A DNA stretch of 64,000 nt from Candidatus Methanoperedenaceae archaeon (GCA_963753595.1 CAVWCX010000034.1:32001-96000), one strand, 5' to 3'. Numbered from the stretch's first letter, positions 35,841 to 44,923 are shown. Notes: generated by a model from the letters alone, not told the origin. Numbers and translations: made by a program.

Positions 35841-37793
35841 TCAAATTCCCCATCCCATGACTCTGGTTTTTTTCAGCGAAAAAAGCCTGGCCTTTATCAG
35901 GACAATAAAACCCCCGATCATCAAAAAAGTTCCTCCCCAGAGAATATTCACCAGCGGCATGACCTTTGTGGTCAAACTTATCGGAGATTGATTTACCGTA
36001 TCTCCATTAGAATGTACTATTATATCCGTGAATAAGGTCCGATGAATAAGGATTTTATGGAACTGGTCTGATCTCTCATTTTTCGTTAAGAACACAGTTC
36101 CATATCCATGAAGTAATCCGTTTTTATAAAAATTTAGATCCAGTGCCTGTTCCGATCCATTCACATTATTCACGATTTTATTATTGGCTATCTGGACGCT
36201 CCATTCCGGATCTATATTTTGTGGGGTACTTAAATCCTTAAGATCATAATCAAGGATACCACCCCTTCCAAAAGATGTGGACACAATTGCACCAAGTATG
36301 ATAAAAATAAATCCTGCATGGATCAACGCTATGCCGACATTGTTTTGTGAAAACCGATGTTTGATGCGAAAAGACCTGAAAAATATCCCCCCGGCCACAA
36401 GAACTGTCATCGAAACATATGGGATGACAGTCCTTGAACCAATGAATTGCACAAGAAACGAAGATCGTTGATAGAAGTCCGAATCCGGGCTAAGAAGTGT
36501 GGGTGTTCCGGGCAAAAATGAGGTCAATGCTGAGATCATGGCCGCTGCAAGCATTATTCGCAGGAGGCTCTCAGGTTTTGCTACTACCTGGAGCATGCAA
36601 TATCCCGTTAATAAAACCAGCAACAGTATAATGGGAAAACTCCAAAAATTATAGAAGTCTTCCGGCATTGGGACAATTTCACCTGATATATTTTCTGAGA
36701 TAATTGAATTAACTGTGCCCCATAAAGGTATGAATGCCAGCAAACATAGAAAAAGAATGGTAGCGTGAAATGAACTTCGCATCGAACTCAGTGACTCTCT
36801 TCTCTGATTTTGAATATTTCTGTCTGGATCCGATCTATTTAAAACCAGGAATAATATTGCGATAATGGCCAGGAACAAAGCCGCAAGCAAGATCCGCCAC
36901 ACTTCGCTTCCCAGGAAATTGTGTTCCGAGCCGCGCACTCCTTTTCGCGCAAAGAACATTATGAAAATATTGAGAATTAATACGGATGCGGCTAACAGCG
37001 GTGCAGTTGTCCTGTACTCTTTTTCATTTCGCCTGTGTCTTACTATCGCATGCAGGGCGGCGGTCAGGATCAGCCAGGCGGCCAGGGTGCCGGATTGGAT
37101 AGTATCCCATTTCCAGTAACCTTTCCACTCCAGTGTCTCATATGCCCATAATCCTCCTGTCACCATCCCAAGTGATAACATAAGCCAGGATAACCTTCCC
37201 CATGACCTCGCCGTGCCAGCCCACTCTTTTTCCCCCGAGTACAGATAGGCGGCAGCGGCTGCAAACAGGATGATGCTTGAAGCATATGCAATAATTAACA
37301 GCGGTGGATGGATCAGGAACCATGGGCTGATAAATTTTGGGCTTAAACCTATACCAGAAGATGCGTCTCCATTAAATGCTTCAAGAGTGAGTTGAAAAGG
37401 CGAATCGACAAGAGTGATCACTAGCAATAAAAATTCTATACCCAGGGTTATACATAGTGTTATCCCGGAAAATCCATTATCCTCCCTGTTTTTTGCATGG
37501 AATATTAGAATGCACAACAAGGTCGCCCATGCCAATAATAATTGCATCCCCTGTTTTCCGGCCCACATGGCTGCAACTTTATAAAAAATAGGATATTCCC
37601 CGCCATATACATAGACATAATTTATATGAAGTCCTGCTGAAATAAAGTAGTAAACCAGCAGTAAAACTGCCGATGAAATAGAAATAAACGCCAGGCCAAG
37701 CATCCAGGAAAAATATTTTTCATTTTTTCGAAGCATTATAGAAACTGCCAAAGCAAAAAATGATACCAATAAAAATATGTTTCCAATATTCAT
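35841..37793 (-). CDS. ccmF: divergent CcmF heme lyase (copy 2), directly downstream of the multiheme genes
   Basis: WAGKQG, IHPP, GGLWAYETLEWKGYWKWDTIQSG (atypical WWD), SEHNF, IHAG. Confidence 0.85.
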   Translation of the reverse strand: MNIGNIFLLVSFFALAVSIMLRKNEKYFSWMLGLAFISISSAVLLLVYYFISAGLHINYVYVYGGEYPIFYKVAAMWAGKQGMQLLLAWATLLCILIFHAKNREDNGFSGITLCITLGIEFLLLVITLVDSPFQLTLEAFNGDASSGIGLSPKFISPWFLIHPPLLIIAYASSIILFAAAAAYLYSGEKEWAGTARSWGRLSWLMLSLGMVTGGLWAYETLEWKGYWKWDTIQSGTLAAWLILTAALHAIVRHRRNEKEYRTTAPLLAASVLILNIFIMFFARKGVRGSEHNFLGSEVWRILLAALFLAIIAILFLVLNRSDPDRNIQNQRRESLSSMRSSFHATILFLCLLAFIPLWGTVNSIISENISGEIVPMPEDFYNFWSFPIILLLVLLTGYCMLQVVAKPESLLRIMLAAAMISALTSFLPGTPTLLSPDSDFYQRSSFLVQFIGSRTVIPYVSMTVLVAGGIFFRSFRIKHRFSQNNVGIALIHAGFIFIILGAIVSTSFGRGGILDYDLKDLSTPQNIDPEWSVQIANNKIVNNVNGSEQALDLNFYKNGLLHGYGTVFLTKNERSDQFHKILIHRTLFTDIIVHSNGDTVNQSPISLTTKVMPLVNILWGGTFLMIGGFIVLIKARLFSLKKTRVMGWGI

Positions 37794-37795
37794 AA

Positions 37796-40027
37796 CTATC
37801 TAAGTTTCCGATATAGGTAAATCAATGTCAATACTCCAATAATAACAAATACCAGTTCCATATATTCGTATAAAAACCATGAACTCTCTTTTTTTAATAT
37901 AACAAGAGGCGCAGGCTTCACATCCCCCCATCTTCCTTTTGAATCCTGCGCATGTATTGAAACTATATGCGTTCCCTCTTTCAGGCCTGAGGTATCCACC
38001 TGTGCATAAGCCTCCCTCACCTGCCCTCCTGCCAGTTCTTTGCCCAGGGTCAAATTCCTGCCCCTTCCCCCTTCTCCAACCATGTCAATAAAATACTCAA
38101 CATTTGTAATGTTCGCCTCCCAGTCTGAGACCGCAAGGACGCTTAAGGAGATATTCTCGCCTGCATAGTTTTTCAGGGGGAGCATGATTATGTCCTTTAT
38201 ATATGGTTCTGAATTTGATCTCTGGAGAACATGCAGGGCAATAGGAGTATCTCCGCCGTGGCAGAGCGTGCAGTTCTGTGCTGCCCTGTGCATAGGCTGG
38301 GTCAGGTTGGTGGCATTAAACGGAGGCTGGCTGCCATATCTAACATGACAATCAGAGCATTTGTTGATCCTGCTTCCATTGCTTGAGTTAAACACTCCAG
38401 GTGATTGTATCGCTCCCGTGGGGAATTCGCTATAGTGGAATCTCTCAGTTCCAGTGGCGTTATGGCACGAATCGCATGATATGGTTCTTGATTCATTTGC
38501 TTTTGGCCCGGATTTTAAAAAATCTTTATCTTCTCCGGTCAGATTGTGGAACTGGTTTTTATTTTCATTATGGCAAACGCCGCAGGTGAGGGTTTTGTTT
38601 ATCTTTTCTACAACAAATGAGCTATAGTGGGAGGCGTCATAACCCAGATGGCAGGTATTGCATGTAACATTTTGCAGGGTTTGTTTTATATGGGTATTAT
38701 GGCAATCCGTGCAACTGGCAGGGCTGCTGTCCGTTGTCCTGCCCACAGGTCTCTCCCATACCAGAGAAGGCTTATGAAACCTGCTTATCCTTGATGAATC
38801 ATGACAGGTCTGGCAGTTTATTTTCATTCCGATTGCAGTATGTTCGGTCTGGTTACCATGGATAAGCCTTGGGATCTGGACCGCTGGCTTATAGGGATAA
38901 TCTCCTTCGACACCGTGACATCCATAGCAGGATGAAGAATTGCCCTGTGAGATATTCTGATAAAGGATATTTTTAGTAAGAGAAAAGTTGTGCAAAGAAA
39001 AGTTAGAAGTTGTAATGTCACCAGTATTGGTATCAGCACTGACTAAAGTACTGGAAGATGTATGGCATTTTTCACACGTATAACTGGAATTTACTTTGAT
39101 AGTGTTTGCACGTTCCTCAGGCGCGCCAGGATAATGCGTACGAATCTGATCTTTTGCCCCGTATTTTTTTACAGCGTCTGCTGAAGTATGGCATCTGACG
39201 CATGTTTTTTCAGAAGGAACAGTGAGATTTGCGTCATGAAGCGTTCTAAGTGCACCTGAGGCATGGCAATCAGCGCACGACCCATTCTTTGTATGGGAAT
39301 ACACCTGGGTTGCATTGCCCCACACCGTAGCATTGGCACTGTCTTTATGGCAGGATGAACAATCTGTTGAATTGTATATTACCTTCCCGCCGTAATGAGA
39401 TATATTAGCTCTCGTATTATTAACTCCTTTTTTTACAACAGCATTGCTGTGGCAGTTCTCACAGCTCGTTTTGACTGTCAGTTTGTCTCCTGCTTTTGTA
39501 TGACCGCTAATGAGAGGGGCATTGTAAGCAGATCCGAATGAATGACACATTTCACAGGATTTCGGGGACCTGTAGTCTTCGGGATGCCCTGACGGCTTGC
39601 TCCCGTTACCGTGGCATGCCCAACATGCTTTATTAATGGGATCAACTGCCACTGCGTTTTCAGTCCTGTTATTGAGTTTTGCATGAACACTCTTCCTGAA
39701 AGCTTCAACATCGACTTGTTTTGGCGCAACTCCTCCCAGGCGGTGGCAGCCTGCACAATCAGGAGAAAAAGTTCCATTCATCAGGGCAGGTTCATGAAAT
39801 GTTCCCGGAACACCACCGACAAGGACATCCTGGCCTGTACTTAATTCAGAACCTGTGTAATTACCGATAGTCTCATTGTAACCGATGATCACTGTCTCGT
39901 TTGATATCTGGCGCACATCTTCGATGACAATAACTACATCAGGAGCTGAACTATCAGCGGCTGTTGAAATATTAATAACAACGATTAAAATGGCGGCCAA
40001 GAGTAGGGATTTCAGGTCTGTTTTCAT
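37796..40027 (-). CDS. 16-heme multiheme cytochrome c with Ig-like domain and C-terminal TM anchor
   Basis: Signal peptide MKTDLKSLLLAAILIVVINISTA; 16 CxxCH counted; NVEYFID...GTHIVSIHAQDSKGRW; TM followed by RKLR. Confidence 0.93.
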   Translation of the reverse strand: MKTDLKSLLLAAILIVVINISTAADSSAPDVVIVIEDVRQISNETVIIGYNETIGNYTGSELSTGQDVLVGGVPGTFHEPALMNGTFSPDCAGCHRLGGVAPKQVDVEAFRKSVHAKLNNRTENAVAVDPINKACWACHGNGSKPSGHPEDYRSPKSCEMCHSFGSAYNAPLISGHTKAGDKLTVKTSCENCHSNAVVKKGVNNTRANISHYGGKVIYNSTDCSSCHKDSANATVWGNATQVYSHTKNGSCADCHASGALRTLHDANLTVPSEKTCVRCHTSADAVKKYGAKDQIRTHYPGAPEERANTIKVNSSYTCEKCHTSSSTLVSADTNTGDITTSNFSLHNFSLTKNILYQNISQGNSSSCYGCHGVEGDYPYKPAVQIPRLIHGNQTEHTAIGMKINCQTCHDSSRISRFHKPSLVWERPVGRTTDSSPASCTDCHNTHIKQTLQNVTCNTCHLGYDASHYSSFVVEKINKTLTCGVCHNENKNQFHNLTGEDKDFLKSGPKANESRTISCDSCHNATGTERFHYSEFPTGAIQSPGVFNSSNGSRINKCSDCHVRYGSQPPFNATNLTQPMHRAAQNCTLCHGGDTPIALHVLQRSNSEPYIKDIIMLPLKNYAGENISLSVLAVSDWEANITNVEYFIDMVGEGGRGRNLTLGKELAGGQVREAYAQVDTSGLKEGTHIVSIHAQDSKGRWGDVKPAPLVILKKESSWFLYEYMELVFVIIGVLTLIYLYRKLR

Positions 40028-40034
40028 CCTCAAC

Positions 40035-43000
40035 TCATCCTTTTACAAATATGTTCGCGATTTTCAGGCGCAAAATCGTGATATCCTTATCATTCAATGT
40101 AGTGTTGTATGTGAAGTATTCCCCTTCGGTTACAAATTCCTCTTTGACTTTTATATTGTCCTTTGTAAGAACTAACCATACATTCTTATTATCTGGACTG
40201 AAATCCTTCATATAAAGTTCATAACCGTTTCCCATGTTCCAGGAATTATTTGAATAAAGCATTTTTTTATCCGCGGTATCAAAATCAATATCTATCGGAC
40301 TTAATGTTACATTCTGTTCATCCTTTTTGAGTACGGAATATTTCTGTCCGTCAGGCCAGTCAGCCCTGTATTCTTTGACATGGCAGGCATAGCACTGCAC
40401 ACTGGTCGTTTCAGTATGTATATGCGTTGGCACATACCCTTTGAATGTTATTAAGCTGACCATACCACCGTAGAAAATTTCAGGTATCTGCATATCTATA
40501 ATGGTTTTATTTTCTCCTTCCTGCACCAACCTGTTTTCATATTTGAAGCCGCCCCCTTCCGTAACCAGCTCATCTTTTATTAATAGCCCATTATAATATA
40601 ATTCTACCCATATGGATTTTCCTTCTTTATCTATATCCGCGATAGATATACTGTAGTTTTCGTTAATTCGCCAGGTATCATCTGAAACAAGCTTTTTTTC
40701 GATGCTCGATAGACGTATTGTTTCCCTTGGGTCAGGCGGATTGCCCCATTTTTGGCTTGTTCTTTCGTTCTGGTGGCAGCTTATACAGTCCTTTGTATCT
40801 ATTGTCGGATATTTTGCAAAATGAGATACGCTGGAATTTACGGTTTTACCAGAATAAAGGACATCATTAATATGGCAGGTAGTGCAGGCAGGTGTTCTTA
40901 TCTGGCTGCTTCCCGGACTATGTGAAGAAATGTGCCCTCGCTTTATTTTCCCGGTCAGGTTAAGCTCACCCTCGATGTGGCATGATGAACAGGTGTTCGG
41001 AGGCTTCCCAATATCAGGATGGTCATTCGGTGCCGTTATAATATTTGAATGGCACGCCCAGCACGCCCTATCCAGTTCAGACCTGGCACCGTTTAAGTTT
41101 GCGTGCAGGCTCTTATTGATAGTTGACTCGCTTACTTTATTTGAGGCAAAGCCATCCGTTCCATGGCACTTTACGCAATTCGATAATGTATAACCCGTCA
41201 TGTTAACAATGGTGGAATTATGGAGCCTGCCTGTGCTGTGGCACGAAGAGCAGCTCAGACCACCATTATGGGTTATATTAGTTCTTGAAATTTTATTGAA
41301 TACATCCGAGAATTCAGAGGCAGGGTTCTGGTGGCAGTATGAGCAATTGGTACTGGTTTTATTTAAATCCAGCATATCAGTCCTGTTCTTGCCATAGTGA
41401 GAAATAGTTGAATTTACAGTGCTGGCATTGAAATTTATCATCTGCGATTTTCTATGGCATAGCTGGCATGTTGCATTTACGGTGATGTTAACAGCATGGG
41501 TCGTATGTTCCGTCGCCTCAGGCGAACTGAAGAGTACAGTATTGTTGACATGGCATGTACTACAGGTATTTGCAGGTTCGGATAGGCCTGGATGCGTATC
41601 AGGCGCTTCACTGGAATTGGAGTGGCATGCCCAGCAGGCCTGATTGAGATTAGAGCTGGAACTCGCATTATTCAGGTTTGCATGGATGCTCAGGTTCATC
41701 ACGGTTTCATTTATTTTCTTCGGAGCAAAGCCGCCGGTGCCGTGGCACTGCACGCAATTCGATAAACTATATCCCTGCATATTCGCAATGGTGGAATTAT
41801 GAAGCCTGCCTGTTCCATGACAAGAAGAGCAGCTCAGGCCGCCATTATGGATGATGTTAGTCCTTGATGTTTTGTTGAAAACATCCGAGAATTCAGAATC
41901 AGGATCCTGGTGGCAATATGAACAGTTTGTATTTGTTTTATTTAGATCAATCATGTCTGTTCTTTTCTTGCCATAGTGAGAAATTGTTGAATTCAGAGTA
42001 CTCCCGTTGAGGTTTATCATCTGCGATTTGCCATGGCATAGCTGGCATGAGGCGTTCACAGAGATATTAGTTGCATGGAGTGTATGCTCTGTAGCTAATG
42101 GAGATTTGATTTTTCCAGAATCGTTCACGTGGCAGGAAGCACATGTGAGCGCAGGCTTATGCATGGGATGTTTTTTCGGTGGTGTTGTTGAATTGGAATG
42201 ACATGCCCAGCATGCACGATTGAGGTTTGAGCTTGAATCATTTATATTAGAATGTATGCTCTGGTTCATGATATCCTGATTTATTTTCGGAAAGAGCCCT
42301 CCCATCATTTCTTCACCCAATGCCTTACTATTGGTTCCGTGGCATCTCAGACAGTTTGATATTACTCCCATACCCATGCCGCCTGTCCCTGAAAGAGATG
42401 AAATTGCAAATAGAGATAACGACTCTACGTAGTTAATCAAATTATTTTCTTTTGAATCAACCTCAGTTGGCAAAGTCACCCATGTTGAATTAGTATAATG
42501 AATGATCGAAAGGTTGCTCTCGTTTACTTTTGTAAATTCTGCGTCATTATAAGTCACTTTAATATTTACACCACTGTAAGAATAGTTCCTGGCGGATATG
42601 CTGAAAAATTTAACAGGGCTCCCTGGCGGTGATGAGTCGGGCATGTCGTTACTGTTCACCTCAAGAGTTAATTCCGTTTTTTCTCTTCCAATAAAAGAAA
42701 CAGATATGGTTTCATCTCCCATTTCTTCGCAATCGTGCGATTTCACTGTCTGGACAGTAGCATTATGGATATGTTCTGAGTTATTTTCAGAATGGGAACT
42801 GATTGCAAATAAAGACAGAGACCTGGCAGATGCATTCAATATGTTTTCTTCCTCATTTACATCCGTAGGCAGCATGGTCCACGTGGAATTTTCATAAATG
42901 AAAAGACGCAGGTCTTTCTCATTGATCCCATTTAAGTCCATTTCACAGTACGCTGCACTGATAGAGATGGATTCAAAAGATAGGTTTTGGGCACCCGGTC

Positions 43001-43325
43001 TGAAAAACCTGGCATGCAAACCATGCGGATGAACATCTACTGGATTATTTTTCTCAAAGTCCTCAATATTTACCGTTACATCTTGGGTACCGTTCTGTAT
43101 AATGGCAGCTGTAATGGTCAGGTTCGCATGAGCGTGCTCCGTTGAATTAGTAGAGTTTTCAGTCGAATTAGAATGGGTATGGTTCGATCGGTCCGCAGAT
43201 TGCTCATTAATTGATGAATCGTAAGAAGAAGTGTTCGCAGCATTTACCACCGATGGAATAAACAGCAGACCCAATAGTATAATACCTGCAACCTGAGTTG
43301 CATGAAAATTATTGTTTCTGTTCAT
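40035..43325 (-). CDS. 18-heme multiheme cytochrome c with two PGF-pre-PGF-like domains and C-terminal S-layer domains
   Basis: Signal peptide; 18 CxxCH counted; hexaheme repeats; Methanosarcina-like S-layer segments YSISIADIDKEGKSIWVELYYNG and YELYMKDFSPDNKNVWLVLTKD; no C-terminal TM. Confidence 0.93.
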   Translation of the reverse strand: MNRNNNFHATQVAGIILLGLLFIPSVVNAANTSSYDSSINEQSADRSNHTHSNSTENSTNSTEHAHANLTITAAIIQNGTQDVTVNIEDFEKNNPVDVHPHGLHARFFRPGAQNLSFESISISAAYCEMDLNGINEKDLRLFIYENSTWTMLPTDVNEEENILNASARSLSLFAISSHSENNSEHIHNATVQTVKSHDCEEMGDETISVSFIGREKTELTLEVNSNDMPDSSPPGSPVKFFSISARNYSYSGVNIKVTYNDAEFTKVNESNLSIIHYTNSTWVTLPTEVDSKENNLINYVESLSLFAISSLSGTGGMGMGVISNCLRCHGTNSKALGEEMMGGLFPKINQDIMNQSIHSNINDSSSNLNRACWACHSNSTTPPKKHPMHKPALTCASCHVNDSGKIKSPLATEHTLHATNISVNASCQLCHGKSQMINLNGSTLNSTISHYGKKRTDMIDLNKTNTNCSYCHQDPDSEFSDVFNKTSRTNIIHNGGLSCSSCHGTGRLHNSTIANMQGYSLSNCVQCHGTGGFAPKKINETVMNLSIHANLNNASSSSNLNQACWACHSNSSEAPDTHPGLSEPANTCSTCHVNNTVLFSSPEATEHTTHAVNITVNATCQLCHRKSQMINFNASTVNSTISHYGKNRTDMLDLNKTSTNCSYCHQNPASEFSDVFNKISRTNITHNGGLSCSSCHSTGRLHNSTIVNMTGYTLSNCVKCHGTDGFASNKVSESTINKSLHANLNGARSELDRACWACHSNIITAPNDHPDIGKPPNTCSSCHIEGELNLTGKIKRGHISSHSPGSSQIRTPACTTCHINDVLYSGKTVNSSVSHFAKYPTIDTKDCISCHQNERTSQKWGNPPDPRETIRLSSIEKKLVSDDTWRINENYSISIADIDKEGKSIWVELYYNGLLIKDELVTEGGGFKYENRLVQEGENKTIIDMQIPEIFYGGMVSLITFKGYVPTHIHTETTSVQCYACHVKEYRADWPDGQKYSVLKKDEQNVTLSPIDIDFDTADKKMLYSNNSWNMGNGYELYMKDFSPDNKNVWLVLTKDNIKVKEEFVTEGEYFTYNTTLNDKDITILRLKIANIFVKG

Positions 43326-43599: not shown

Positions 43600-43764
43600 A
43601 TGACAAACAAAGAAATAAATCCTTATGTAAGCCTTATCTGCACCCACTGCGAATTCTTCAAGGAAGATGATTTCGAGCTTGAATGTGCAGCATTCAAAGT
43701 ATTAAAAACCATGCTTCAGGAAGGCAGGATAAAACCAGCTGAGATAAAAGATGTCTTCAGGTAA
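43600..43764 (+). CDS. 54-aa CxxC...C accessory protein (not in ORF track)
   Basis: MTNKEINPYVSLICTHCEFFKEDDFELECAAFKVLKTMLQEGRIKPAEIKDVFR; overlaps the rSAM start. Confidence 0.7.
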   Translation: MTNKEINPYVSLICTHCEFFKEDDFELECAAFKVLKTMLQEGRIKPAEIKDVFR

Positions 43765-44923
43765 ATATCACGTGCTTGCGCCGGGCTATATCCTGCGCGA
43801 GCTTGAATCCCCTGTTGTATATAATATCATTAAAGACGAGTTGTACGAACTTGACGAGGAGGCGTTTCATTTTTTAAAAAAATGTAATGGAGGGAATCCT
43901 TTCCCGGATCTGCTCTTGAATGGCAAAAGCGATGAAAATATTGATTTCATGCAGGATGAAGGGATCATCCGGTTGGCAGAAGGAAAGGAGATAAGAAAAA
44001 TTAAAACTCACAGATCACCGATCCCTTCACTACGTTATCTTCTTTTAAATATTACGAATATATGCAATCTCGCCTGTAAGCATTGCTATCTCCAGTATCC
44101 AGGAAAACTTGAGATAGATCTTGATGTTTTTGAAAAAGCGGTATCGCAATTTGAAGAAATTGGCGGTTTAAAACTCATGATCTCTGGTGGTGAACCGCTG
44201 GTCCATTCAAGATTCTGGGAACTTATGGAGATACTTCCATCGTATGAATTAAGAGTGGTTGTCCTGTCAAACGGAACCCTGATAGACAGGAACACTTCAA
44301 GAAAATTATCCGATTATGTTCATGAAGTGCAGGTCAGTATCGACGGTATCTATTCTCATGATTTACTGCGAGGAAAAGGTTCGTATGCAAAGTCAATGAA
44401 AGGTATTTCCAACTTAAATGAATACGGGATACCCATTTCGATCGCTACCATGGTACATAAATTCAATACAGGTGAATTTGAGGAGATGGAAAAGCTTTTT
44501 TCAAAGACAGGAGCAATTTCATGGAGCGTTGATGTTCCATGTATCGTGGGTTCACTTTGTGAAAACAAGGATTTTGTTCTTGATTTGAAAGAAGCCGCCA
44601 ATTTTTTGGAATACGGTTTTGGTGCCGGATCACATGAAAGCACTGGTGATCATACCTGCGGTTCTCACTTATGTTCGGTATCGCCCGATGGTTCAGTCAG
44701 TAAATGCGGATTTTTTGAAAATGAACCTGCAGGGACTGTTAATGATCTTCGGTCTGCATGGAAAAACATTTGCATGTCCTACTTATGGAAACTTGATGAA
44801 CTTGAATGCAAGGATTGCGCTGTACTTTCCGAATGTAAAGGCGGATGCAGGTTCAGGGCAAAGCAATACAAAGGAATACTTGCGCCTGACCCTTTGATGT
44901 GCCAGGTTAATTTACATTTGTAA
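43751..44923 (+). CDS. radical SAM/SPASM protein with N-terminal PqqD/RRE-like domain
   Basis: CNLACKHC, SGGEP, SNG, VSIDG; C-terminal CGSHLC...DG.V.KC...CKDC.....CKGGCR...DPLMC; ~85-aa N-terminal extension. Confidence 0.9.
   Translation: MSSGKYHVLAPGYILRELESPVVYNIIKDELYELDEEAFHFLKKCNGGNPFPDLLLNGKSDENIDFMQDEGIIRLAEGKEIRKIKTHRSPIPSLRYLLLNITNICNLACKHCYLQYPGKLEIDLDVFEKAVSQFEEIGGLKLMISGGEPLVHSRFWELMEILPSYELRVVVLSNGTLIDRNTSRKLSDYVHEVQVSIDGIYSHDLLRGKGSYAKSMKGISNLNEYGIPISIATMVHKFNTGEFEEMEKLFSKTGAISWSVDVPCIVGSLCENKDFVLDLKEAANFLEYGFGAGSHESTGDHTCGSHLCSVSPDGSVSKCGFFENEPAGTVNDLRSAWKNICMSYLWKLDELECKDCAVLSECKGGCRFRAKQYKGILAPDPLMCQVNLHL

Follow-up and report, generated by a model that had tools for sequence, protein, structure and literature searches.

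A 34-heme cytochrome of Candidatus Methanoperedens divided between two genes inside an S-layer domain, with predicted strand complementation between the halves

Introduction

A multiheme cytochrome of the MHC-B type, which other anaerobic methanotrophic archaea (ANME) encode in a single open reading frame (ORF), is carried by two adjacent genes in a genome of Candidatus Methanoperedens (ANME-2d). These genes lie on the minus strand of a 64,000-nucleotide stretch of DNA (GCA_963753595.1, CAVWCX010000034.1:32001-96000), which is referred to here as the window, and to which all the positions refer. Gene A (40035..43325), the outer half, encodes 18 CxxCH heme motifs, and gene B (37796..40033), the anchored half, a further 16. 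The comparison of these sequences with their uninterrupted homologues makes it near certain that A and B are the split halves of one ANME MHC-B cytochrome of 34 hemes (18 + 16), separated by gene fission, and confirms that the cut is inside the second DUF1608/PF07752 module of A, in the loop that follows the IFxG strand. The structural models indicate, in turn, that the N-terminal strand of B probably docks into this second module to rebuild it.

The cluster formed by MHC-B and the CcmF2 gene, the fusion of S-layer domains with cytochromes, and the role proposed for these proteins are already described in the literature (PMC9012536, PMC7082337, PMC10874420). The aspects of the present case that appear to be novel are the split inside the S-layer domain and the strand complementation that the models predict. 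In the coding used for the genomes, the window is G000:C34, and f1–f6 are coded families.

The Two Halves and the Junction

Gene A (minus strand, delimited by ORF and translation) encodes a protein of 1096 amino acids (aa), in which no CxxCH motif is found before residue 325. Hydrophobic 19-mers are restricted to its N-terminus, which is the pattern of a signal peptide, with neither a transmembrane (TM) helix nor any other anchor at the C-terminus. The protein ends in DITILRLKIANIFVKG, within the longer stretch LRLKIANIFVKG, and its last residues, KIANIFVKG, are followed directly by the TGA stop codon (40035..40037, minus strand). This stop is the point of fission, which in the fused protein of the same genus falls after residue 1377 and before residue 1378.

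Gene B (minus strand) begins only 1 nucleotide (nt) past this stop if the start is TTG 40033, which gives 745 aa, or 7 nt past it if the start is ATG 40027, which gives 743 aa, and is in a different frame in relation to A. The ATG is the more likely start, given that the orthologues begin at the equivalent M[KR]. The first 26 residues (39956..40033, minus strand), which end in INISTAA, form a hydrophobic signal peptide that has no counterpart in the fused homologues, and its putative cleavage site is placed by the conserved S[ST]AA motif. The mature protein would then begin, after STAA, with DSSAPDVVIVIEDVRQISNET (DSSAPDVVIVIEDVRQISNETVIIGY following INISTAA). The predicted donor strand, DVVIVIEDVRQISN, occupies residues 32–45 (39899..39940, minus strand), near the mature N-terminus, where it aligns with the post-VFIG strand of the fused homologues and also with the AVFIEGIFQISDEY of the Methanosarcinaceae. 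A second N-terminal strand, TVIIGY (residues 47–52; 39878..39895, minus strand), is predicted by the complex model to pair with A 1006–1008. The 16 CxxCH motifs follow in residues 93–592 (38258..39757, minus strand), and hydropathy places a C-terminal anchor, a TM helix, at about residues 719–745 (37799..37879, minus strand).

The original prediction, which was drawn from the window alone, had described an 18-heme protein that stops after IFVKG, even though its first S-layer repeat continues past IFYGG, followed 1–7 nt later by a gene with a signal peptide, with a C-terminal TM helix on the 16-heme protein and not on the 18-heme one. Translation, hydropathy, and the end points of the PF07752 matches (position 189 in the second module versus 201 in the first) bear out all of these observations.

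Fused Homologues

The homologous loci were obtained by searching 41 genomes with residues 1–140 of B. A search with the C-terminal part of A covered proteins of 602–1918 aa, and recovered only split forms; the fused forms are longer, and came from the whole-genome searches. Six homologues (G007, which is of the same genus, G028, G034, G037, G029, and G033) are single ORFs of 2114–2276 aa with 34–35 CxxCH motifs, each with a hydrophobic segment at the N-terminus and a TM helix at the C-terminus, and they are distributed among four families, with G007 belonging to the genus of the window. Two further fused forms, in G021 and G013, have 52 hemes. A CcmF homologue follows the fused ORF in all eight cases (8/8).

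In the fused forms, the sequence KLDRVFIGK-TPAIVLTDVRLIAGEQ leads straight on into a B-like cytochrome. In the BLASTP alignment with the G007 protein, the last residue of A (1096) corresponds to residue 1377 and B 34 to residue 1380, so that B D32 corresponds to 1378. No residue has been lost or duplicated at the cut, and the only new elements are the signal peptide and about five linker residues. The PF07752 profile itself crosses the junction in five fused homologues, reaching positions 192, 197, 199, 216, and 224, in comparison with 189 in the second module of A. The original prediction had proposed gene fission with the acquisition of a new signal peptide, and had pointed to fused homologues and to the continuity of the S-layer profile across the junction as the appropriate evidence, and both were found.

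In the two 52-heme forms (loci L041 and L042, of G021 and G013, respectively), an insertion of 14–17 residues (…VSG[FL]RLAEY…) is present in the loop that is cut in the split forms. This insertion indicates that the junction loop tolerates change.

The S-Layer Modules and the Missing Strand

Gene A matches PF07752 (S-layer/DUF1608, 259 positions) in two stretches, with 80.8 bits against a cut-off of 30, and TIGR01567 with 78.7 bits, which is under the cut-off of that family (121.9). The full domain of about 259 positions is not present in A, where the matched parts are positions 111–201 and 106–189. The first of these modules (residues 876–963; 40437..40700, minus strand) is contiguous, and reads IPEIFYGGMVSLITFKGYVP, which contains an additional strand of its own (MVSLITFKG) past the IFYGG version of the IFxG motif. 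The 18th heme motif, CYACH (residues 978–982; 40380..40394, minus strand), is located in the linker that separates the two modules, and a single heme motif between two S-layer parts has been described for all ANME S-layer multiheme cytochromes (PMC9012536). The second module (residues 983–1096; 40038..40379, minus strand) ends at IFVKG, and is the predicted acceptor of the B strand. Its PF07752 match (residues 1015–1093) stops together with the protein, and phmmer aligns it with residues 104–190 of the 3U2G chain.

The PF07752 modules that stand alone, in ORFs of 205–227 aa in four Methanosarcinaceae genomes, span positions ~97–213, which suggests that an autonomous module extends some 15–25 positions past the end of gene A. 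At the position after IFxG, ten canonical DUF1608 domains of the Methanosarcinaceae read IFRGTETNAVFIEGIFQISDEY, so the Methanosarcina strand cited in the original prediction was essentially right. The acceptor module of A lacks a strand that is present in its contiguous relatives.

The source genome contains 17 PF07752 matches, including both full tandem domains and short single modules. One of its loci (L045; G000:C23:101966-108186) encodes a smaller, unsplit paralogue, a contiguous ORF of 1133 aa that combines 19 CxxCH motifs and a pair of S-layer modules with a TM helix at the C-terminus, and that adjoins a canonical tandem-DUF1608 S-layer gene of 837 aa. The second module of this 19-heme cytochrome runs on as AKVSGIIQAKPKNMVILDEVAGISPE in a single chain. 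At another locus (L044; G000:C1:64909-66637), a canonical tandem-DUF1608 S-layer gene is apparently broken, with an in-frame TAG in its second domain and, directly after VDSIFSGA, a frameshift in the very loop that is cut in the cytochrome. PF07752 positions 4–194 are in one frame and positions 192–259 in the next. A pseudogene, an error made in assembling a repeat, or mere coincidence could each explain this locus.

Models of the Docked Halves

The complex of the two halves was modeled with A 983–1096 and B 27–92, using custom alignments of 15 and 18 rows and three controls. The interface score (ipSAE, the interaction prediction score from aligned errors) was 0.74, 0.75, and 0.75, and the best of the three controls was 0.00. 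Of 80 solved complexes, 58 reach the mark applied to this score, as do 2 of 110 mismatched pairs, although these counts are rough here because of the custom alignments. The runs share at least 87% of their contacts, and the predicted local distance difference test (pLDDT) of the partner is at least 68. The pLDDT of the A module is 79–80 with B, against 48 with unrelated partners.

In the model, B 33–40 is inserted between a pair of A strands. Among the contacts of highest certainty, B 35–40 runs antiparallel to A 1087–1092, the last strand of the module, beside A 1020–1023, and B 48–49 is set against A 1006–1008. Taken together, these contacts suggest that B would supply a central strand and a second strand, which is more than an edge. 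In the AlphaFold2 (AF2) model of the corresponding fused segment of G007, the second module's last strand (98–112) and the strand that follows the junction (116–126) are paired in a hairpin, with block pLDDT values of 88 and 75, and a strand is also found at 39–42. When the second module of A is modeled alone, piece residues 29–44 and 107–114 are coil; these are the segments that touch B, and their equivalents are strands in the fused model. Foldseek returned 3U2G as the top match of both models, and 3U2G and 3U2H were the only significant matches in the PDB. The match to 3U2G covers 143 columns with the extension (E 4.8e-7), and 112 columns without it (E 1.7e-3).

The proposal that the anchored protein donates a strand to its partner is favored by these models, in which the complex passes its controls, the docking being a prediction made in silico. 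The original prediction had also held that the S-layer domain is incomplete without the partner, and this was upheld for one sheet, where the two segments that touch B are unstructured in the model of A alone, but not for the domain as a whole, the core of which folds alone with a mean pLDDT of 81.2.

Conservation of the Split

All 16 full-length homologues of gene A (60–85% identity over the query region) finish at the same residue, with the ending [FL][VI][KN]G. A 17th homologue, P0018, is truncated earlier, and was left out of this count. Where a source name is attached to these homologues, it is Ca. Methanoperedens sp. or Methanosarcinales archaeon. Besides that of the window, adjacent split pairs are present in four genomes of the genus, and also in two genomes of the family f3, in which two further loci have B at the end of a contig. 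The A-like protein of the f3 pairs finishes with VGRVFRG or IAEVFRR, and in the B-like protein a longer signal segment precedes GTEIVQIEDVTFISPDLW.

The 16 CxxCH motifs are retained in all of the split B orthologues (10/10), while the equivalent part of the fused forms has 17. Within the genus, conservation is strong over the first 20 residues of mature B (…[IV][IV][IV]IED[AV]…IS[NS]ET), and it is recognizable in f3 (IVQIED..FIS). The ratio of nonsynonymous to synonymous substitutions (dN/dS) between the window and its orthologues in the genus is 0.13–0.17 for the second module of A and 0.06–0.29 for the first 65 residues of mature B, based on eight of nine comparisons, with one dS being non-computable. 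These ratios show purifying selection on both sides of the split.

A quite different account of the junction is that it is an artifact or a product of decay, whether an error of sequencing or assembly, a pseudogenized MHC-B, or a fused product still made through read-through or frameshifting. The arrangement of three of the five pairs of the genus, which are in frame with a single stop between the ORFs, could favor this account. In the remaining two pairs, however, A and B are out of frame, which argues against a conserved recoding signal or read-through. An accidental stop or a decaying gene also fits poorly with the common end point of the 16 homologues, which come from different assemblies, and with its recurrence in a second family, as it does with the conserved signal peptide at the restart, the retention of every CxxCH motif, and dN/dS values far under 1. 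Contigs from two other public runs (X2 record 5 and X3 record 7), which belong to relatives, also bridge the junction. No change at 40035-40037 is among the differences listed, but the list covers only part of the differences, and is thus weak evidence on the stop itself. No public run contains more than 0.21 of the sampled words, and no RNA run containing the stretch was among those listed. Taken as a whole, this account is highly improbable. Error or recent pseudogenization can be excluded for practical purposes, and conserved read-through is rejected. The stop is not a read error, and the original prediction had itself argued that a simple frameshift error would not create a signal peptide.

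In one further genome of the genus, G004, a transposase-like pair of ORFs separates the second module of A from the rest of the gene (C10, loci L005, L043, and L048; C50, locus L046). A remnant of this module, of 126 aa, adjoins an intact B, and the remaining part of A is at the end of another contig. Either an insertion element has interrupted A, or the assembly was broken at one.

Direction and Number of Events

Three trees were built, from the region equivalent to B (19 rows) and from CcmF (11 rows). The fused loci form a clade with support of 100/100 that mixes the families, in both the B-equivalent and the CcmF trees. The split clades of f1 and f3 are long-branched, and the relationship among the three clades has support of 48/29. 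Holding the split forms together is not rejected (p = 0.152 in the approximately unbiased test, p-AU). A single fission is not claimed from these trees, given that they can neither root the clade nor settle whether the f1 and f3 splits have a common origin.

The direction is read from the domain itself. We infer fission rather than fusion, given that the module is contiguous in the canonical S-layer proteins, in the first module of A, and in the paralogues, and that the assembly of a domain from two genes is unlikely. One fission event is suggested by the shared 16-heme state.

The disagreement of the fused MHC-B clade and its CcmF with the family labels suggests that the whole cluster has moved between ANME lineages. 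Two of the three trees, with supports of 95 and 99/99, pair the fused protein of G007, which belongs to f1 (the genus Methanoperedens), with its G034 (f2) counterpart, but the careful B-equivalent tree does not. This grouping agrees with the lateral transfer of large multiheme cytochromes reported in PMC12180501.

Weighing of the Docking and Its Alternatives

The principal alternative is that the fission was real, and that no docking followed it. The two products would then be separate proteins, cut at a tolerant surface loop, with A held in the lattice or released, and B persisting as an anchored periplasmic cytochrome. Electrons would pass between them by transient collision, and the N-terminal strand of B would be vestigial, or folded back on B. 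The 14–17 residues accepted by the junction loop in the 52-heme forms are compatible with this alternative, as is the canonical tandem-DUF1608 lattice encoded in the genome, which could accommodate A.

A number of other results also weigh against docking, or against parts of the scheme in which it is embedded. A 28-column hidden Markov model (HMM) of the Methanosarcinaceae tail that follows IFRG, run against the 1123 six-frame ORFs of the window, did not include the frame of B among the matches listed, and had a best E of 1, while an ungapped 14-column matrix ranked the B segment VIVIEDVRQISNET 8th, in a list of the top three positions of each open frame (1123 frames, 61,741 positions). The likeness of the short strand motif, taken alone, is thus suggestive and not significant, and the homology of the B strand rests on the fused homologues. 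Residues 28–100 of B match no Pfam family at E values of up to 10. In the AF2 model of the second module alone (mean pLDDT 81.2, predicted template modeling score [pTM] 0.70), the core is confident, which indicates that B may be dispensable for its stability. As the fold that the two halves recreate has already been solved (3U2G/DUF1608), the pass of the complex model may stem from the memory of the predictor. The models show that A and B are compatible with a single DUF1608-type module, which is a likeness to the fold, and not an affinity. The trees settle neither the direction (fission versus fusion) nor the number of events, occasional read-through is conceivable in the three in-frame pairs of the genus, and G004, where A is interrupted and B intact, indicates that B can coexist with a disrupted A, if only for a short time or in an assembly.

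The fission without docking nevertheless fits less well with the conservation of the first 20 residues of mature B, with dN/dS of 0.06–0.29, in a segment that falls inside the PF07752 match in the fused forms. It is also opposed by the contrast between the complex and its controls (0.00), including the rise in the pLDDT of A from 48 to about 80 in the presence of B, and the disorder of both B-touching segments of A when this protein is modeled alone. Given this, a fission that left two independent proteins appears unlikely, while still deserving consideration.

In a third reading, the strand is promiscuous, with either the B strand or the groove of A pairing with other DUF1608 subunits or S-layer cytochromes, as a general plug and socket of the lattice. 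The 17 PF07752 matches of the genome, which include full tandem and short single modules, would offer partners of this type, and the number of CxxCH motifs in A varies among the homologues (6, 12, or 18), while B is constant at 16. In the five genomes checked, however, there is one A-type second module per genome, which adjoins B in 5/5, and no other module ending at position ~189 was seen in the genome, except in the apparently frameshifted S-layer gene. A strand of such general use is thus improbable.

The Proposed Assembly

The cut fell within the second module, in the loop next to the end of its IFxG strand, where a stop codon, a restart, and a new Sec signal peptide were added. In the arrangement regarded here as probable, that is, docking of B into A, the two proteins would be exported separately by Sec, and their hemes attached outside the membrane with the help of the adjacent CcmF paralogue. 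The close coupling of stop and start would favor matched amounts of A and B. Once held by its C-terminal helix, B would span the pseudo-periplasm with its 16 hemes, and the cleavage of its signal peptide would free a mature N-terminus (DVVIVIEDVRQISNET, then TVIIGY) for insertion into the second module of A as the missing strand or strands. The B strand would run antiparallel to A 1087–1092, beside the strand at 1020–1023, and the module would thereby be rebuilt.

This docking would tether the anchorless A (18 hemes), which would be both embedded in the S-layer and extracellular, to the membrane-anchored B. Through its two modules, A would sit in a DUF1608-type S-layer, of which the source genome encodes canonical tandem proteins. 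The 18th heme of A would be in the S-layer plane, with the other 17 hemes and the heme-free tip outside, and under this placement of the modules and of heme 18, the cut falls exactly at that plane. The result would be a single path of 34 hemes from the membrane to the exterior. We infer, from this arrangement, the order of export and assembly, the continuity of the hemes, and a role in extracellular electron transfer.

The constant number of hemes in B and the variable number in A raise a broader, and more speculative, possibility. A constant 16-heme base may plug its strand into interchangeable outer proteins of 6, 12, or 18 hemes, according to the number of copies of a hexaheme unit, forming a modular, two-piece conduit. 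This would make a protein of over 2000 aa easier to export and to mature, and would allow the extracellular reach to evolve independently. The system may, perhaps, have had a single origin, and have been transferred between two ANME families. It is a tentative proposal, for which the odds are somewhat unfavorable.

Other Features of the Genes and Their Neighbors

The N-terminal region of the A protein, at about residues 30–320, is heme-free. Residues 227–309 match TIGR04213 (PGF-pre-PGF; E 1.5e-9), and the family scans returned a weak match to DUF7438 and no peptidase M6 family in this region. The heme-free N-terminal domain of MHC-B is annotated as peptidase M6-like in PMC9012536 (Chadwick et al. 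2022). Pfam matches for the A protein also include cytochrome families, in addition to PF07752.

Among the 16 full-length homologues of A, two have 6 CxxCH motifs, 12 have 12, and two have 18, so that the number of hemes in these proteins (P0002-P0017) steps by six. These steps suggest that residues 325–851 of A (40773..42353) are three copies of a hexaheme unit of ~190 aa. Residues 1–100 of B have no match among the PDB sequences at E values of up to 10.

The gene located directly downstream of B (35841..37793, minus strand) encodes a CcmF/NrfE-like heme lyase of 650 aa (PF01578 and PF16327; TIGR00353/TIGR03145, E about 1e-42), the three genes being arranged head to tail. Its place corresponds to that of CcmF2 in the MHC-B cluster, and it matches the ORF downstream of all ten related loci (eight fused loci and two f3 pairs) with BLASTP E values of 1e-59 to 1e-102. 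Upstream of gene A, and divergent from it, an ORF of 390 aa (43751..44923, plus strand) contains CNLACKHC, a motif of the CxxxCxxC type, and a Cys-rich C-terminus; it resembles a radical-SAM/SPASM maturase. Conserved membrane-protein ORFs of ~258 aa and 350–363 aa are found upstream of the fused MHC-B genes (loci L031-L036), and are assumed here to be, probably, the "signal peptidase" and "8x TMH" genes.

Relationship to Known Systems

The window pair shares with ANME MHC-B, as the latter is described in PMC9012536, dozens of CxxCH motifs, an S-layer DUF1608 domain with one heme motif between its two parts, a C-terminal TM helix, and an adjacent CcmF, and the N-terminal region of A is a candidate counterpart of the heme-free domain of MHC-B. 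It differs in having two genes, cut inside the S-layer domain, and a second signal peptide. The TM helix, which is on B, and the S-layer modules are thus on separate polypeptides, and are combined only in the pair.

The DUF1608 protein MA0829 of Methanosarcina acetivorans (3U2G/3U2H, PF07752) is the only sequence match in the PDB, and has the same IFxG motif followed by a strand of the AVFIEGIFQISDEY type. Unlike MA0829, the window pair has only profile positions ~106–201 of the 259, in two copies separated by a heme. The pair lacks all other parts of the canonical domain, which has two subdomains, and the second copy is divided between two proteins.

In donor-strand complementation or exchange, which is found in chaperone-usher pili and in archaeal donor-strand filaments, a beta-sandwich that lacks its C-terminal strand is made whole by a second polypeptide, through an extension at the N-terminus of the latter. 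The complex model resembles this arrangement, with the donated B strand predicted to lie between two acceptor strands. The predicted product differs, however, in being a heterodimer of two cytochromes rather than a polymer, and in having arisen through the fission of one gene. No chaperone or usher genes are evident in the list of the ORFs of the window, to which this search was confined.

In the MtrCAB system of Gram-negative bacteria, an inner and an outer multiheme cytochrome meet in the outermost layer of the cell, and carry electrons across it. An analogy between this system and the S-layer cytochromes is drawn in PMC9012536. A and B, by contrast, have no porin, they are predicted to join through a shared beta-sandwich of the S-layer type, and the families are unrelated in sequence. 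In the running text of the literature covered, including PMC9012536, PMC10874420, PMC7082337, and PMC12180501, no mention was found of a split MHC-B or of strand complementation, a statement that does not extend to the figures and supplements (such as Fig 11, Fig 12B, and S13 Fig of PMC9012536, in which the ANME-2d or ANME-2a cluster could appear as two genes).

Implications

The giant S-layer cytochromes are the proposed route of the electrons that pass from methane-oxidizing archaea to metals, electrodes, or partner bacteria. The split provides small pieces that can be expressed, that is, a module of 114 aa and a peptide of ~25–65 aa, so that binding can be tested without the 34-heme protein. 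If the docking is true, the pair would clearly exemplify a gene fission within a domain, rescued by the complementation of a strand in trans.

The "12-", "18-", and "22-heme S-layer cytochromes" reported for Methanoperedens may be the halves of longer wires, the partners of which have been annotated as unrelated cytochromes. The conserved split at the S-layer plane predicts, in turn, how the conduit would be built, with an inner and an outer half joined by a shared beta-sandwich.

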